From the NCBI GenBank assembly GCA_963850165.1, contig CAWKKK010000010.1:56799-120798 (forward strand): a DNA stretch of 64,000 bases, written 5' to 3'. The translations under genes were made by a program, and so were the position numbers. The DNA comes from an uncultured Acidobacteriaceae bacterium (GTDB taxonomy: Bacteria; Acidobacteriota; Terriglobia; Terriglobales; Acidobacteriaceae). Shown piece after piece: positions 5,508 to 28,590 of this stretch (its first letter is position 1; each line of letters starts with the position of its first letter). The notes below the pieces were generated by a model. It ran no database searches, was not told where the DNA came from, and worked only from the letters and a program-made list of their open reading frames with translations.

Positions 5508-6332
5508 ATGCCTAAAGTTTTACTGGCCGAGGACGATGATGCTGTCCGCGATATGTTGCGGGCGGCGCTGGAGCGTGATGATTTCGAGGTCGTTGCCGTC
5601 GCGAACGTATGCGAAGCGCTTAGCCGCATCGCCGTGGAGAGCTTTGATGTGTTGCTCTCTGACCTGCACATGCCGCTAGCCGGAGATGGCTTCACGGTGG
5701 TCAGCGCCATGCGCCACACCCATCCCCACGCTGTCACGCTGGTGCTTAGCGGTTACCCAGAGCTGGACGAAGCCTTGGCGGCCATCCGCCTACAGGCTGA
5801 CGAAGTGCTTGTGAAACCGATCGAGATCGCCTCACTCCGGAAAATTATCCGCGAAAAGCTCAAGAACCCGGTAACTCGTCCGCGGCTTCCCGCAAAGAGC
5901 GTGGCCTCAATACTGGAGCAGGACCTCGAGGCTACGGTTCACGCCTGGATGGCCCTGGTGGAGCGCGACCAAGAGCTGACCTGCATCGCTTTGAACTTTG
6001 AAGATCGTACGGGCCATCTTCCCAACCTGCTTGCCGATTTGATTTACCGCTTGCGCCTGCCTTCAACCGCGAAGGCCAACTTCTCCCTCGCCGCGCACGA
6101 GCACGGAAATCTGCGACGCCGTCAAGGCTACTCTGCGGCGATGACGGTCGAGGAATCGCGAATCCTGCAGGTCAGCATCTTTAACACGCTACAAAACAAT
6201 CTGTCCAGCGTGGACTTCAGCCAGGTTTTGCTTGACGTGATGACGATCGCAGACGAAGTTGACTCGCAACTGAAGCAGGCCATGCTCAGCTTCGTCCAGC
6301 CCGAACCCGGCACCGCCCGGCCGGCGGCCTAG
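5508..6332 (+). CDS. response regulator: receiver domain plus a C-terminal helical domain (possibly RsbRD_N-like)
   Basis: Start at ATG 5508 (MPKVLLAEDDDAVRDML..DVLLSDLHMP..VLSGY..KP), a typical REC fold. The C-terminal half has no DNA-binding motif that I recognise. ORF track gives 5307-6332. Confidence 0.8.
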   Translation: MPKVLLAEDDDAVRDMLRAALERDDFEVVAVANVCEALSRIAVESFDVLLSDLHMPLAGDGFTVVSAMRHTHPHAVTLVLSGYPELDEALAAIRLQADEVLVKPIEIASLRKIIREKLKNPVTRPRLPAKSVASILEQDLEATVHAWMALVERDQELTCIALNFEDRTGHLPNLLADLIYRLRLPSTAKANFSLAAHEHGNLRRRQGYSAAMTVEESRILQVSIFNTLQNNLSSVDFSQVLLDVMTIADEVDSQLKQAMLSFVQPEPGTARPAA

Positions 6333-6342
6333 AGCCTGAGTC

Positions 6343-6974
6343 TCAATTGGGCTGGTCGAGTAGCTTTCCCACTTCGGTGCTGAGGCGGGCCGGGTTGACG
6401 CACAACAGCAAACTGGGATCTGCTCCGTCGAGCTGATGCATCCAGAACGTGGGATGCGGTGGTTGCTGTCCGTCCCAGGTAATTCCCGGCTTGTAAATCA
6501 GGTACACGTCCCAAGCGATCTCGTGGAGATCGAGAGTTGCCCCGAAAAGCTTGCCAACATCGCGACTGCTATCCCAGCCCTGCGAGATGCGAGCATCCCG
6601 AACCGTTTCAGCTTGCTTGGCAGCGGCCGCGGGGCTGTCGCCGTCACGCATCGGCTCCCATACCAAAAGCGCTTGCAGCTTGGGCGACGGGAACTTCTTG
6701 AGAATGCCGCCCACGATCGCGTGCCCGACTGACAATCTGAGCAGGTGGGAGAAAGAAGAGCGACGATACGAATTCTCTGGTTCGAAGCGTTGAACTCCTT
6801 ACGCAGGTCCTGTGTGCTGAGTAAGGACAGGGGAGCAGCGGGCGTGCTCGTACGAGCGGCAGGTTGTTCGGTTCTGTGGGCAGAAGAGTGGCAGCAGTCC
6901 TGAGGAGCAGCCGAAGCACAAGTCCATCCCAGGGTGAGAACTACGGCCGCGAAAAGTGAACGGAGTTTTCGCAT
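6343..6974 (-). CDS. secreted thioredoxin-fold protein with a CSDC motif; frameshifted near 6721-6735
   Basis: AAGGAGG RBS precedes ATG 6974. It encodes signal peptide MRKLRSLFAAVVLTLGWTCASA and ..IVALLSPTCSDC (track ORF 6498-7022). The sequence then continues in another frame as VGHAIVGGILKKFPSPKLQALLVWEPM.. (track ORF 6343-6735). Confidence 0.6.
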
Positions 6975-16776: not shown

Positions 16777-17402
16777 GCCGCGAAGCGGCGATAGAATGCA
16801 GCCCAAGGCGCAAGCCCTGGGTTTTCTTTCGAGGCGCGCAACCAAGCCCTGTAGGGGCGGAAGACGATCAATCCCAAATATACCGCTCGTCGTACGCAAC
16901 GTTGTTCTTCTTCAGAAACACCACAAACTCCTCCTGAAACGATCGATTCCGGTGATGCTCCTCCTGCGTCGCGATGTATTTTGTGACGGCTGGAACGCTT
17001 GACTCGCTAACACTGAATACACCATATCCAGCTTGCCACGCGAACTCTTTGTGGCCCTTCTTTCGAATCCATCCTGAGGAATTTGTCTTGACGATGCGTG
17101 CGATCTCGGCAATGGATTGTGCCGGGCGAATACGCATCAGCATATGGACGTGATCACAGGTTCCGTTAATGATCAACGCTGTACCGCGCAACTCCCGCAC
17201 AATGCCGCCCAGGTACGCAAAAAGGTCGGCGCGAATGCCTGACGCAATCAAAGGCTTACGCAGTTTGGTGCTGAAGATCAGGTGCACCACGACATTGCCG
17301 CAGGTCTGCGCCACGTATCTTTCGCCCTTTCAGGGCTTGTTTCCCGATTCACCTTTACCCAGGGCTTGCGCCCTGGGCTGCAATCTGTCGCCGCTTCGCG
17401 GC
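16777..17402. mobile_element. RAYT/IS200-like unit: transposase gene bracketed by about 80-nt inverted REP-type repeats
   Basis: 16777-16822 matches the reverse complement of 17357-17402 at 43 of 46 nt, each with a cccagggc-GCAA-gccctggg hairpin. Similarity continues to 16858 and from 17321. Confidence 0.8.
16868..17314 (-). CDS. REP-associated tyrosine transposase (Y1 HUH, IS200/IS605-like)
   Basis: 148 aa containing VVVHLIFSTK, the HUH motif CDHVHMLM and the catalytic Tyr region AGYGVFSVS. Confidence 0.85.
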   Translation of the reverse strand: MAQTCGNVVVHLIFSTKLRKPLIASGIRADLFAYLGGIVRELRGTALIINGTCDHVHMLMRIRPAQSIAEIARIVKTNSSGWIRKKGHKEFAWQAGYGVFSVSESSVPAVTKYIATQEEHHRNRSFQEEFVVFLKKNNVAYDERYIWD

Positions 17403-17677: not shown

Positions 17678-18680
17678 TCAGGGCTTAAAGCCAAACTGCT
17701 CGTCAAGTACGATCTTTGACAGCTTAAAACCGTCGACAAGGGCAATGGGATTCTTGCCTTCTTCGCGTGGCCTCGTTGATCGCTGCTTTTGAGAAATGGC
17801 TGGTCGTGAGGACAGCGCGCCTAGCAAATGGTCCCAGGCTCCCGCGCAGCTCGGCGACTTCTTTCCTCCCAACTGAGTGCAGCCAGCGTTTCGCTTGTAC
17901 CTGGACTACCGTGTCCTCGAAGATCCAAATTCGGCCACCTGTTCTCGCGTTCACGTCGACGCCGCCGTCGGCGGTGAATCTCGTGACACAAACATCTCGA
18001 AAGCCACAATGGACAAGCAATTCCTTGACGAACACCTCGAAGCGCCTAGGCTCCATCGCCAAGAGCCTCCCACGAACTTCTTCGATTTGTTTGACATTTT
18101 CGGCCTGCGGCCGGCTGCCTCCATCGACGATCTCGTCATCGGCAGAATTGCTGGCGTCCTGAAGCCTGGACGCAGTGATTACCTGGCTCGCGACGGCCGC
18201 ATCGGCCGCGAGCGGGAGGACCTGTTGCTCGTCGTGAATCTTGAATTCGAAGAGCCAAACCTTCCGGACCTTGCCGTCCGCGTCGAGCTGAGTGTCCGGA
18301 TAGTGTCGGAGATACTCGAGCAATCCCAAATATTTCCAACGTTTTGCTCCGACAGACTTATCCCTTCTGCTGGCAATTAAGGAGAACCCGTGTATTGGGA
18401 AATTGAGGATCTTTTGCTCGATCAATCGGCTGTTTCCGCCAGCGAGCGTCTGTTGGCCAAGTTTTCCTGCCGCCGTGTAGGTCACGATGCCGCCCTCAAG
18501 TCTGTCGTGGTAGGGATTCTCACGGGCTCCGTGGAAGCTCTGATCGGAGGTCATAATCGTCGCTCTCAGAACCGCTTTGTCTGAGATTGAGAGGCGAATG
18601 CCGCCAGCATTCGACACTTTGAGAGATCTGAATATCTCGTCGTTTGAGTAAAGCTGTCCTACCGCCAATTCTTCGATCAT
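17678..18680 (-). CDS. Mrr-type restriction endonuclease with an N-terminal SRA/PUA-like domain; frameshifted near 17765
   Basis: The C-terminal half has a Mrr_cat-like core (FEVFVKELL..TADGGVDVNA..VVQVQAKRW..VGRKEVAELRG). The tail switches frame: ..SKAAINEATR then EEGKNPIALVDGFKLSKIVL.. (track ORFs 17724-18680 and 17678-17872). N-terminus: YTAAGKLGQQTLAGGNSRL. Confidence 0.7.
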
Positions 18681-18800
18681 CGACGCCCGCGACCTCCAAT
18701 GGGGCAGATGATTATAGAATACGGACTGGCGAATCGAGGGCAGTCCTAAGGGGCGCTCGATGCGCGTGCCTGGGGGAAGTCAGGAGAGCGGGGAGAACAC

Positions 18801-19067
18801 ATGGTAGCAAGCGAGGGCGGGAAGACCGCAGTCAGGCTGGGCGCGGATGGCGTGAGTACGATCGTTGCCGCACTCAGATTGTTCCAGAGAACCTATCAGG
18901 ATCGTGACGACGAGGCGCTCTCGCAGGACTTCCCAGAGATCTTTACGGCGCAGCACCTCCGCTTCGGCGTTGTTGTCGAGCCCGCTCCGCTGCGCGCTGA
19001 CGACATCGACGATCTATGTGAACGGTTGAACGGGTTGGACGAGCTAGAGTTGAAGGTAACTGAGTAA
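18801..19067 (+). CDS. small acidic hypothetical protein (88 aa)
   Basis: ATG preceded by GGGGAG. The sequence is D/E-rich with no motif I recognise. Its TAA stop overlaps the ATG at 19067 (TAATG). Confidence 0.5.
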   Translation: MVASEGGKTAVRLGADGVSTIVAALRLFQRTYQDRDDEALSQDFPEIFTAQHLRFGVVVEPAPLRADDIDDLCERLNGLDELELKVTE

Positions 19068-19745
19068 TGCGTTCGGCGGTTTGTCGCTGAAGAAGTCCCC
19101 ACGGATCGAGGCGTTTATCATCTGTTCCGGAATGGAGCCCTAGTCTACGTGGGAAAGGCTGACAACCTGAAGAACCGGCTGTCCGAACATCTCTCCAAGA
19201 TCATGGGGCGGCAAAACATCGAAGCTAGCGAGATGACTTTTACCTGCCTCACTGTGCATAAGAACTGGGCTGCACTAGCGCCCGAATCCACTCTCATCGC
19301 CTACTACAAAAAGCAGTCGGGCGGCCTCTGTGAGTGGAACGGGATCAGTTTCGGACCACACGACCCAGGCCGAGAGCGAGAAACGTCAGACAAACCGCCG
19401 GACGGATTCGACAGCCAGTTTCCCATCCACGCTGACTGGCCCTGCAGCAGCGTCACTGCGGGAAACTGGAACATCAGAGAATTGCTGATCTTGATGAAGG
19501 AGAAAATGCCCTTTGTCCTCAGATACGAAGCCGTGAAGAAAAATTATCGCCGGGGGCATCCGGACTACAACGACTTGACTGTCGTGGTGCCGCGCAGTGG
19601 AATGCCCGCGAACGAATTACTCCGGCTCATCACTGAGAAGATTCCGGGCTGGCAAGCCACTCAATTCCCGAGTCACATGATTCTATATAAGGAATCAAGG
19701 GATTATGTCCACGGGACTGTGATCTGGCGGCAGGCCCCATCCTGA
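19067..19745 (+). CDS. GIY-YIG nuclease, Eco29kI-like; the 5' end needs a 1-nt frame correction in the T-run 19080-19082
   Basis: The frame upstream of track ORF 19149-19745 stays open and encodes RGVYHLFRNGALVYVGKADNLKNRLSEH (GIY-YIG). Later comes WNGISFGPHDPGRERE. No in-frame ATG, GTG or TTG lies between the TAA at 19065 and the GIY motif. Confidence 0.65.
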
Positions 19746-19891
19746 TGGCCGCTTTTCCCATTTTGGGAATTGTTTTCCACTTTTTTCTTAGAATTTTCTT
19801 GCCTTCGTTTGCGGATGGCTATTGAATAAATAGATGGGGCGGCATTCGCGTGTTTTTCCCGAATGCCGCCTTTTTCGTTTTGAGGTTGGTC

Positions 19892-20389
19892 ATGAAGAAG
19901 CGGATACCTAAAGTGATTGGCAAGAAACTTCGCGGCGAGTGGACCGAGATGCGGTTCATGGTGCGCGTGGCAGAGCTTGGTTTGCCGATCAGCAACCCTT
20001 GGGGAGACTCCAGGAGTTTTGACTTTGTGGTGGGATGGCCGCGTCACTTCGTGGCAGTGCAGGTTAAATCCACCATCTTTGAACTGAACGAGGGTTGGAT
20101 GTGCACGGTGTGCAGCAGCGGCCATCCGTATCCGCCCGGGTCGTTCGACTTTCTGGCGGCCTACATTGTTTTCGAGGATGCCTGGTACATCATTCCCGAG
20201 GAGAAGATTCTGGGGATGAAGTCGGTTTCGCTGCATACGAAGTGCAACCAGTCCCGGTACGAAAAGTACAGGGAGAACTGGGACTTGCTGCAACGATCAG
20301 CCGGTGCGAAGCCGGAGGGCGAACCCGAGACGGGCCAGGTCGACGACATTCAGGGATGCGCGGAAGAAGTTTTCTTCAGCCTGGGCTGA
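19892..20389 (+). CDS. stand-alone PD-(D/E)XK endonuclease (PDDEXK_5-like)
   Basis: GAGG RBS plus ATG 19892. GEWTEMRFMVRVAELGLPISNPWGDSRSFDFVV..VAVQVKST..FDFLAAYIVFEDAWYIIP fits the D..(D/E)xK layout of this family. Confidence 0.7.
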   Translation: MKKRIPKVIGKKLRGEWTEMRFMVRVAELGLPISNPWGDSRSFDFVVGWPRHFVAVQVKSTIFELNEGWMCTVCSSGHPYPPGSFDFLAAYIVFEDAWYIIPEEKILGMKSVSLHTKCNQSRYEKYRENWDLLQRSAGAKPEGEPETGQVDDIQGCAEEVFFSLG

Positions 20390-27703: not shown

Positions 27704-27825
27704 AATTCCTCCACCGGGTTTTTCGAAGGCGCGCGGCGAATGCAGGGGCGGCCGTCCGAACTCCCTGCGGAAAGTCTAGGCCATGCCTACTTCGGAGTCA
27801 AAGCGCGTGGGCTTTGCAATCTACT

Positions 27826-28590
27826 ATGCGGCCGAAACCATCGGCTTACCAAGCCGTCCTCTCGAAGTCTATGCTTAGGGGCGTAGGCTGCAGGAGGGTT
27901 CTGGTGATTCTCATACGTCGTGTTTTAACGCTGGCGCTGCTGGTTTCGTGCCCGGCTCTGTCGCTTCTGTCCGCTCAAAGTCCTGCTCCTGCCCCGGCCG
28001 CTGCGCCGGGCGAACATCGCAAGACCAGCGAACCTTACACGGGAGATCTCTCCATTTTCGATTCGCCGGGGCGGGATGAACGCCTGCAGGTTAGTCGCGT
28101 CATGGACATTCTGGGCATCACGGCCGGAAAAACGGTAGCCGACATTGGAGCCGGATCAGGCTGGTTCACGGTGCGCGCGGCGCGGCGAGTGGGTGAAGGC
28201 GGCGTGGTTTATGCGGTGGATATTAATCCGGAATCGATTCGCTACATCGATGATCGCGCGCGGAAAGAGAAACTGCGCAACGTGAAGACGATTCTTGGCA
28301 AGGCGGACGATCCGCTTCTTCCTGCGGGGGCGGTGGATGCTGTGCTGCTGCTGAAGACTTATCACGAAGTTGCGAAGCCGGTGGCTCTGTTGCGGAACCT
28401 GCGGGCGTCGCTGCGGCCCGAAGCCAGAGTCGGAATCATCGATCGCAATGGGAATGGCGAGGATCACGGTGTGGGCCGGGACGTTGTGCTGCGTGAGGCT
28501 GCGCAGGCGGGTTACCGGTTGCTGGAACAGTATGACTTTGTGAAGGGCGACAAGATGGATTACTTTTTGGTTCTGGTTCCCATAGAGTAG
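27826..28590 (+). CDS. secreted class I SAM-dependent methyltransferase
   Basis: Motif I VADIGAGSGWFT, then a post-I acidic residue (VYAVDIN). A signal-like N-terminus is present. The start is ambiguous (TTG 27814, ATG 27826 or ATG 27871). Confidence 0.75.
   Translation: MRPKPSAYQAVLSKSMLRGVGCRRVLVILIRRVLTLALLVSCPALSLLSAQSPAPAPAAAPGEHRKTSEPYTGDLSIFDSPGRDERLQVSRVMDILGITAGKTVADIGAGSGWFTVRAARRVGEGGVVYAVDINPESIRYIDDRARKEKLRNVKTILGKADDPLLPAGAVDAVLLLKTYHEVAKPVALLRNLRASLRPEARVGIIDRNGNGEDHGVGRDVVLREAAQAGYRLLEQYDFVKGDKMDYFLVLVPIE

Follow-up and report, generated by a model that had tools for sequence, protein, structure and literature searches.

How does a gene for a restriction-type nuclease come to stand behind a small acidic open reading frame (ORF), with no methyltransferase gene at its side? 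This question is raised by positions 18,801–19,745 of a DNA stretch from an uncultured Acidobacteriaceae bacterium (contig CAWKKK010000010.1; the whole stretch of 64,000 nucleotides that was analysed is called the window below). An orphan restriction nuclease without a methyltransferase would be lethal if active; the nuclease of the window, however, is beheaded, being the 5′-truncated copy of a gene that we call R2. The first-pass annotation had taken the two ORFs for a nuclease/immunity or toxin-antitoxin pair. Our analysis makes it very likely that the segment is instead a junction, at which a cassette of about 1.5 kb, made up of a Type IV restriction gene (Mrr) and the gene of the small acidic protein (small88), meets what is left of a former Type II system composed of Vsr, a C5 DNA methyltransferase (M) and R2.

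The layout proved to be as it had first been described. The 88-aa ORF is rich in D and E (18 D+E against 9 K+R; isoelectric point 4.4), its TAA (19065–19067) overlaps an ATG at 19067 (TAATG), and it shares a frame with the downstream ORF; past the TAA, this frame reads CVRRFVAEEVPTDRGVYHLFRNGALVYVGKADNLKNRLSEH...WNGISFGPHDPGRERE... until the stop at 19743–19745. The downstream product had been recognized correctly as an Eco29kI-like, restriction-type nuclease with a GIY-YIG core, since Pfam GIY-YIG (PF01541) matches residues 19–82 of the 225-aa translation that follows the TAA with 29.9 bits, above the cut-off of 22.6. The second profile expected, RE_Eco29kI (PF09517), stayed just below its cut-off of 30.8 bits, at 28.8 bits for the window and 30.7 bits for the intact homologue P0006. 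The motifs GVY, YVG (VYVG), R..EH (NRLSEH), APE and WNG can be read in the window copy and are invariant or nearly so in the alignment; by analogy, they would carry the catalytic roles known from GIY-YIG enzymes. True Eco29kI-type genes (R1), found in loci L003 and L031, reach 144–198 bits with PF09517, against about 30 bits for the R2 family, although a precomputed PF09517 match is present in most intact R2 homologues. In a search of the PDB with the family profile, the GIY-YIG domain of UvrC (1yd6) was matched at E 3.7e-5 and Eco29kI at E 0.02. Judged from these profiles, R2 is probably a distant sister family of Eco29kI and not Eco29kI proper.

The homologue search, with the concatenated 314-aa translation of both ORFs as the query, returned 227 relatives, most of which match only its final two-thirds. 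Intact R2 homologues have about 250 aa (240–270 aa in 100 of the 120 best matches) and begin with the conserved N-terminus MPFF.HFEIDII.AL.EQL...L.PG.L..E.L..VP.EQGVYHLF. In tblastn with the intact proteins P0006 and P0004, residues 38–253 align to the window at 71% identity, and the alignment with intact R2 leaves the window nuclease without the N-terminal ~37 residues and the start codon; the missing 37 residues are not found in the window DNA in any frame. The first ATG, GTG or TTG after the TAA in the shared frame is GTG 19149, which lies within the YVG motif. No translatable ORF therefore covers the first β-strand (GIY), as none of these start codons occurs from the TAA at 19065 up to GTG 19149; the same holds for locus L001. 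Candidate internal starts of the remnant are GTG 19149, ATG 19203 and ATG 19233. These comparisons show that the nuclease ORF is a 5′-truncated R2 which retains the 3′ five-sixths of the gene.

We examined five divergent and independent systems with an intact R2, and all five have a PF00145 C5 methyltransferase and Vsr next to it; in two of them (L003, L039) R1 and R2 occur together in one system. In the window, no C5 DNA methyltransferase (PF00145-like) is detectable by tblastn, and stubs of vsr or of the methyltransferase gene were not found there either. The ORF at 27814–28590, about 8 kb away, encodes a generic class-I S-adenosylmethionine methyltransferase with no PF00145 match, so the nuclease indeed has no methyltransferase partner, as had been noted. 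The proposal of an orphan nuclease module was not borne out. Since the intact homologues examined all adjoin a C5 methyltransferase with Vsr, the window copy is to be regarded as the remnant of a decayed restriction-modification (R-M) system.

What replaced the missing parts can be seen in about 15 loci that were gathered by scans of genomes and metagenomes. The gene order in all of them is an Mrr-like gene, small88 and the R2-derived ORF; Mrr is divergent from small88 in most loci, and inverted yet adjoining in L018 and L041/42. The clearest case is L016, which we compared with the intact locus L004. On the vsr side, L016 4366–4793 corresponds to L004 6398–6823 at 87% nucleotide identity, and on the R2 side, from about codon 42, L016 6320–6969 corresponds to L004 8124–8773 at 93%. 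Between these flanks, L004 (6823–8124) carries M in full and R2 up to codon ~41, while L016 carries Mrr and small88 in ~1.5 kb. Several other loci keep stubs of vsr, and one of them also of M (Table 1). From the stubs and from the L016/L004 comparison it can be concluded that the ancestral unit was vsr, M(C5) and R2. The cassette is thus shown to have taken the place of the methyltransferase gene, part of vsr and the 5′ end of R2 (~37 codons, among them the start), and because of this replacement there is neither a methyltransferase partner nor a usable start before GIY. Terminal direct or inverted repeats of the kind that transposons have are not common to the loci at the ends of the cassette.

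Small88 is a conserved gene, as had been surmised, and it goes with Mrr. Its homologues form 22 protein clusters, all of 86–97 aa and 57–80% identical, with the invariant core ..TIVAALRLFQ..Y...E....DFP..F......FG.V..P.PL....I..LC..L (core of the wider domain family: ..TIVAALRLFQRTY..DFPEIF..PAPL..DDIDDLCE.LN). The ratio of nonsynonymous to synonymous divergence (dN/dS) between loci is 0.13–0.5, and small88 is a genuine selected gene, not a chance ORF. It adjoins an Mrr-like gene in all ~15 loci, that is, in every locus with enough sequence, and it was found beside R2-derived ORFs in these loci but never beside an intact nuclease: it occurs only next to 5′-truncated R2, is absent from all intact R2 loci examined, and none of the nuclease homologues carries its domain. 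The expected co-occurrence with the nuclease therefore holds only for the beheaded form, and the comparison shows small88 to be a separate, selected gene tied to Mrr and not to the nuclease.

The stop codon between the two ORFs has a plain explanation as well. In every independent locus that spans the 3′ end of small88, the gene ends in a stop at the same position or a few codons away (L016 has lost the stop and is longer by 5 codons), and the bases after it, TAA TGCG.T..., are common to several loci; small88 has thus been a separate cistron throughout. A comparison of 13 junctions, together with the alignment to intact L004, assigns the cassette-specific TGCG.T.. and the out-of-frame ATG 19067 to the junction segment. 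This ATG opens an ORF of 7 codons only (MRSAVCR*). The frame of the remnant relative to small88 is 0 in the window, +2 in L001 and +1 in L016. As the remnant frame varies by locus and the small88 stop is ancestral, recoding by readthrough or frameshifting is excluded, and neither of the two readings first offered, ATG 19067 used with a 1-nt slip or one 314-aa protein, can be kept. The TAA is simply the stop of small88, in frame with the remnant by a one-in-three coincidence.

Table 1. Features of the window around the junction, stubs kept in related loci and gene order of systems with an intact R2
Feature or locus	Position	Strand	Description
Mrr, MspJI/AspBHI-like modification-dependent (Type IV) restriction gene	17681–18680	−	main ORF 17724–18680, 318 aa
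19-nt element GGCAGATGATTATAGAATA	18703–18721		nearly invariant, between the divergent Mrr and small88 starts; 10-locus alignment
small88	18801–19067	+	88 aa, acidic; second gene of the Mrr cassette
Junction segment	19068–19091	+	between the small88 stop and the onset of clear R2 homology
R2 remnant, 5′-truncated (codons ~38–end)	19092–19745	+	tblastn, alignment, Pfam, PDB profile search
Stubs, window and L001			no vsr or M stubs
Stubs, L009			vsr 1–136 and M codons 1–120 (M frameshifted)
Stubs, L010, L013, L014/15, L021			vsr to ~codon 70
Stubs, L018, L042			vsr to codon 123
Intact, L002			M then R2; vsr by tblastn
Intact, L003 (Corallococcus)			Vsr, M, true Eco29kI-type R1, then R2
Intact, L004–L008			Vsr, M, R2; M overlaps R2
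Intact, L037/38 (Caballeronia)			GmrSD, Vsr, R2; M on the opposite strand
Intact, L039/40			R2, M, R1, Vsr

The larger gene of the cassette, Mrr, has 1188 homologues, typically of 333 aa, with dN/dS between loci of 0.06–0.1. Pfam Mrr_cat matches it with 63.5 bits and RE_AspBHI_N weakly (E 0.09); the C-terminal domain is an Mrr-type PD-(D/E)XK domain, D...(Q/E)xK, in which ..VQVQAKRW.. is present. With the AlphaFold2 (AF2) model of the 87%-identical protein P0257, Foldseek found MspJI (4f0q, E 3e-12) and AspBHI (4oc8, E 9e-12) over ~380–400 columns, followed by the SRA domain of ScoMcrA and by TagI, all of them modification-dependent enzymes. On the strength of this model, Mrr would presumably depend on 5-methylcytosine (5mC), which an SRA-like domain in its N-terminal half might bind. 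The window copy carries a 1-nt frameshift near 17764–17769, an insertion near codon 305 (GCC ACG C GAA GAA GGC AAG against ..A S E E G K.. of the relatives), by which the last ~28 codons (..EEGKNPIALVDGFKLSKIVLDEQFGFKP) lie in another frame, at 17681–17764, as seen by tblastn with P0257 and P0274; the conserved ..NPIALVDGF.. segment is out of frame too. This frameshift is either real decay or an assembly error.

The nearly invariant element between the starts of Mrr and small88 is a near-palindrome with TATAAT on the minus (Mrr) strand and TATAGAAT on the plus strand, which makes it a candidate for a shared or overlapping promoter or for an operator; a scan for the sigma-70 consensus did not call a promoter between the two genes. 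Just past the 3′ end of Mrr, at the place where sister loci hold vsr stubs, a gene for an IS200-like Y1 transposase was observed (PF01797, E 3e-21; 16868–17314, minus strand).

The same Mrr clade (75–80% identical) also occurs in a second arrangement, at L028 4516–6002, L031 4462–6002 and in L032–L036. There it comes right after a true Eco29kI-type R1 that is without its C-terminus (Pfam positions 3–129 of 164), with a 4-nt overlap in L031–L036; no methyltransferase is present, and a different conserved acidic ORF of 76–80 aa lies downstream on the opposite strand. We considered this ORF (L028, L031–36) as a relative of small88, and also of the N-terminal domain that larger proteins carry fused to small88-like domains, and rejected both since neither blastp nor an ad hoc hidden Markov model, run against 3821 decoy ORFs, revealed any similarity. 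A Y1 transposase gene is found near the second arrangement as well (L028 1854–2321). In L029/30, Mrr of the same clade has neither neighbour and the vsr stub is kept.

Why such a replacement might succeed can be sketched from the predicted activities. Post-segregational killing is a known effect of Type II systems. A nuclease that depends on 5mC and a methyltransferase that produces it would be incompatible wherever the former cuts at sites methylated by the latter, and loss of the methyltransferase would make a Type II nuclease intolerable. A single replacement that removed M and beheaded R would solve both conflicts and could offer a 5mC-dependent enzyme a viable way in. From such a beheading it would follow that the full-length nuclease is no longer made, and selection might then favour further destruction of the catalytic half.

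The state of the remnants can be compared with this account. The R2-derived ORF after small88 is damaged differently from locus to locus, especially in its N-terminal part. L010 has an additional in-frame stop and a degenerate GIY motif, L009 and L013 have frameshifts in the N-terminal part, and deletions from the 5′ side reach as far as YVGK..R (L012), GRRNI (L018, L019, L041), FKIMG (L021), MSFSC (L022) and CEWNG (L014/15). The C-terminal body is affected in five lineages, by a stop in L013, by frameshifts in L019, L021 and L022 and by a deletion in L014/15.

Several observations weigh against the junction reading in its simplest form. Divergence comes first, and part of it speaks for the reading, in that small88 goes with Mrr. 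The window and L010, from an uncultured Acidobacteriaceae metagenome-assembled genome (MAG), are syntenic (rpoD ... dnaB ... lepA), and synonymous divergence (pS) between them is 0.47–0.57 for host genes, 0.45 for Mrr and 0.40 for small88, but saturated at 0.80 for the remnant. The L016 remnant has a dS of only 0.33 from the intact R2 of L004, yet is saturated in comparison with the other remnants. Across loci, synonymous divergence of small88 is correlated with that of Mrr (Mantel r 0.59, p 0.02) and more weakly with that of the remnant (r 0.46, p 0.03), and Mrr and the remnant are not correlated (r 0.28, p 0.23). Judging by these divergences, the cassette is a co-evolving unit, and the flanking remnants have a different history. 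One insertion followed by vertical descent was rejected for this reason, as the synonymous divergence is saturated for the remnants and not for the cassette; the account further requires recombination or gene conversion that involved intact R-M copies, an exchange of flanks, or capture that happened repeatedly. Further, the remnants are better preserved than long-dead pseudogenes should be: dN/dS among remnants is ~0.07–0.12, it is ~0.05–0.12 even where two loci have a derived truncation junction in common, and only 0–8% of the highly conserved positions are altered (positions conserved in ≥93% of 100 intact R2 proteins; in the window 3 of the 66 compared, with an intact-protein mean of 1.8%). 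L018 and L019, which have the derived junction GRRNI in common, show nonsynonymous divergence (pN) of 0.04–0.06 and pS of 0.51–0.56 (dN/dS 0.05), and for L010 and L012, with a common derived truncation junction, dN/dS is 0.12. Some truncated forms have an ATG of their own (L041, P0026, P0063, P0095). The window cassette may itself be decaying, given the Mrr frameshift, and the P0257 model used for Mrr is of low confidence (predicted local distance difference test score, pLDDT, 57.6 overall; the N-terminal half mostly <50, the C-terminal domain 70–84). That the ORF is a remnant is certain; that it is functionless is not. Either intact genes have refreshed the remnants time and again, or some function preserves a C-terminal fragment that is catalytically dead; the cell may still produce and use the last ~170 residues of the remnant.

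The latter idea, which is compatible with an origin of the locus as a junction and departs from that reading only as to what the fragment does today, deserves the most attention among the alternatives, though we consider it rather unlikely. According to it, the C-terminal ~170–200 residues of R2 are translated from an internal start and have been co-opted as a catalytically dead third component of the Mrr–small88 unit. This component might, for instance, be a subunit that binds DNA sites or regulates, or it might poison related nucleases that come in, by a dominant-negative effect. Besides the low dN/dS at the derived junctions and the conserved positions that most remnants keep, it is favoured by new or retained ATGs near the M of ..EMTFTCLTV in the four truncated forms just named: in L041 (453–965), the sequence upstream of the ATG of ..MTFACLTV, GGGGTGGGGGAA, contains a G-rich, Shine-Dalgarno-like stretch. 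Secondary lesions are also ~6 times denser per codon in codons 38–84 (at least 8 in 47) than in codons 85–254 (5 in 170). However, because body lesions occur in five lineages, any function of the fragment would seem dispensable; a fragment whose start lies halfway into the GIY-YIG core would hardly fold by itself, and a good ribosome-binding site before the internal ATGs of the window was not seen on reading the sequence. Repeated overwriting from intact R2 by gene conversion, which the decoupled synonymous divergence suggests, would give a low dN/dS too. More improbable still, in our view, is a stronger version, in which Mrr and small88 are a self-contained module that repeatedly supplants M and the R 5′ end, with small88 as its inhibitor or timer and the dead R2 C-terminal fragment as a selected third component. 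The same Mrr clade is found in two different types of Eco29kI-like system. If this version were true, small88 would let a 5mC-dependent nuclease establish itself in a still-methylated genome, and a Type IV system would have been exapted from a Type II system, with the R2 fragment in a DNA-site-binding or regulatory role.

Nuclease/immunity and toxin-antitoxin pairs such as colicin DNase-Im and barnase-barstar resemble the locus in that a small acidic ORF stands immediately beside a nuclease ORF. An inhibitor/nuclease or toxin-antitoxin module of small88 and the GIY-YIG ORF, in which the nuclease is made through translational coupling, through a 1-nt slip or by reading through the TAA, might draw further on the fact that the R2-derived ORF always lies immediately downstream of small88, that some truncated R2 ORFs overlap or closely follow the small88 3′ end (P0063, L041), and that the small88 domain occurs in mobile-element proteins, once beside a Lar-like domain. 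We regard such a module as very improbable nonetheless. The window nuclease is without its N-terminal ~37 residues and start codon, most sister loci have lost the catalytic motifs by deletion or frameshift, the frames differ between loci, and ATG 19067, with its 7-codon ORF, is not conserved across loci. Intact R2 relatives protect themselves by a methyltransferase, with M and Vsr and never small88 beside them, while small88 keeps company only with beheaded copies, always beside an MspJI-like Mrr as its constant partner, and its divergence follows that of Mrr and also that of the remnant. That an error of sequencing or assembly produced the TAA, or a base close to it, and conceals a 314-aa protein or an intact nuclease gene, has practically no probability left. 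The two window ORFs do share one frame and the frameshift of neighbouring Mrr could be an assembly error, but the small88 stop is at or near the same position in all independent loci that span its 3′ end, 22 of 22 clusters are of 86–97 aa, nuclease homologues are without the small88 domain, and the N-terminal 37 residues of R2 are missing from the DNA altogether.

With the junction reading retained, a few observations on the remnant and its surroundings may be added. The constrained C-terminal ~170 residues are found at L018 1700–2092, L019 1055–1589, in L010 and L012, and at L041 453–965. One Acidobacteriaceae MAG (contig CAWDXI010000002.1) holds two distant Mrr–small88–remnant units, L009 at ~1.77 Mb and L010 at ~0.72 Mb, whose stubs differ (vsr and M 1–120 against vsr 1–70) and whose remnants are ~76% identical. 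Between the remnant of the window and the next gene, at ~19837–19880, lies a GC-rich hairpin (GGCGGCATTCG ... CGAATGCCGCC) with a T-run after it; this has the appearance of an intrinsic terminator and was left uncalled by a terminator scan, probably because its loop is longer than 8 nt. The next gene, just 3′ of the remnant (19892–20389, plus strand), encodes a PD-(D/E)XK_5 protein (PF11645, E 4e-13; PADLOC 'homing endonuclease' model, E 9e-9). Such genes are also present at L010 7084–7551, L013 2617–3015, L028 3097–3558 and in L031–33, in three different arrangements. A free-standing homing-type endonuclease could drive gene conversion of the kind suggested by the decoupled flanks.

What small88 does was approached through its wider family. 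Small88 has no family match in Pfam, PADLOC or NCBIfam, and in PHROGs some family members have matches, only to entries of unknown function. Its AF2 model has a pLDDT of 66 and no fold match in the PDB below E 1. A profile search with the domain collected 113 representative proteins of 59–417 aa, and it is often part of larger, very acidic proteins (160–417 aa); many of these have an N-terminal 'MEY.V.W.IEVDA.SP.EAA..AR' domain in common, and single members also bear DUF3846, Lar-like or zinc-ribbon domains. Sites of the domain outside the cassette include L024 101–973, L025 749–1600, L011 ~5970–6459 and L027 6983–7294. By tblastn, a family member gave zero matches in phages and one in plasmids, on the conjugative plasmid pMRAD02 of Methylobacterium radiotolerans, within ~17 small co-oriented hypothetical genes. 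On sequence similarity, small88 appears to be a stand-alone member of an undescribed domain family that is also present in mobile-element proteins, and from this context a part in the conflicts that mobile elements have with host nucleases may be suspected. Because the domain recurs in such proteins, small88 might act as a check on, or regulator of, the predicted Type IV enzyme; speculatively, it would then be the functional partner of Mrr, binding, restraining or otherwise regulating it. An origin of the small88 C-terminus (DDIDDLCERLNGLDEL) from the N-terminal helix of R2 (FEIDIISALAEQL..), to which BLAST alignments extending to 80% query coverage had pointed, was also considered. It was ruled out, since DDID.LCE.LN is found in the small88 domain of distant non-nuclease proteins (L011, L024/25, P0146–P0213) and R2 homology at the DNA level starts only near the GEQGVY codons.

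Parts of this picture are already known. Among GIY-YIG Type II enzymes, R.Eco29kI (PF09517; PDB 3NIC/3MX1; PMC1952068) has the same core as R2, a WNG..FG.HDPGR.RE-like segment of R2 matches the Eco29kI profile, and the intact R2 homologues are likewise partnered by a C5 methyltransferase (and Vsr); unlike R.Eco29kI, R2 stands only at the PF09517 cut-off, and the window copy is truncated and alone. MspJI has vsr and a C5 methyltransferase gene in its locus, and about half of the MspJI family adjoins 5mC methyltransferase genes, an association that Zheng et al. (PMC2938202) termed intriguing. The window Mrr resembles MspJI in its Mrr catalytic domain, QAK motif and predicted β-rich N-terminal domain and in its position within vsr/C5-methyltransferase/R remains. 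It differs in that the methyltransferase is deleted or truncated here and not retained, a GIY-YIG restriction-gene remnant is left, and a conserved 88-aa gene accompanies the enzyme; we found no small partner gene like small88 described in the literature for MspJI-family enzymes. Allelic substitution of R-M systems (Furuta et al. 2010, PMC2853133) and conflict between a methyl-specific nuclease and a methyltransferase (Ishikawa et al. 2010, PMC2993543; for Mrr and the Type III Mod, PMC3152355) have been described, and as in those cases one restriction system has replaced another type at the same place, with a Type IV enzyme and a methyltransferase mutually exclusive. Here, in contrast, the substitution took place within an operon, and R2 alleles that differ greatly adjoin one and the same cassette. 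R-M decay, allelic substitution between restriction types and the association of MspJI with vsr and methyltransferase genes are thus familiar. What is new is that the replacement lies inside an operon and has left stubs of vsr, M and R behind, that Mrr has a conserved small gene of an undescribed domain family as its partner, and that a fragment of a restriction gene appears to be constrained.

For the MspJI family, the loci give an evolutionary route by which enzymes of this type may come to lie in R-M-like loci, namely a Type IV gene that displaced M and disarmed R. Small88 becomes a candidate for a protein that regulates or inhibits a Type IV enzyme, its domain possibly serves mobile elements against restriction, and the fragment of the restriction gene looks selectively maintained after the loss of its catalytic half.

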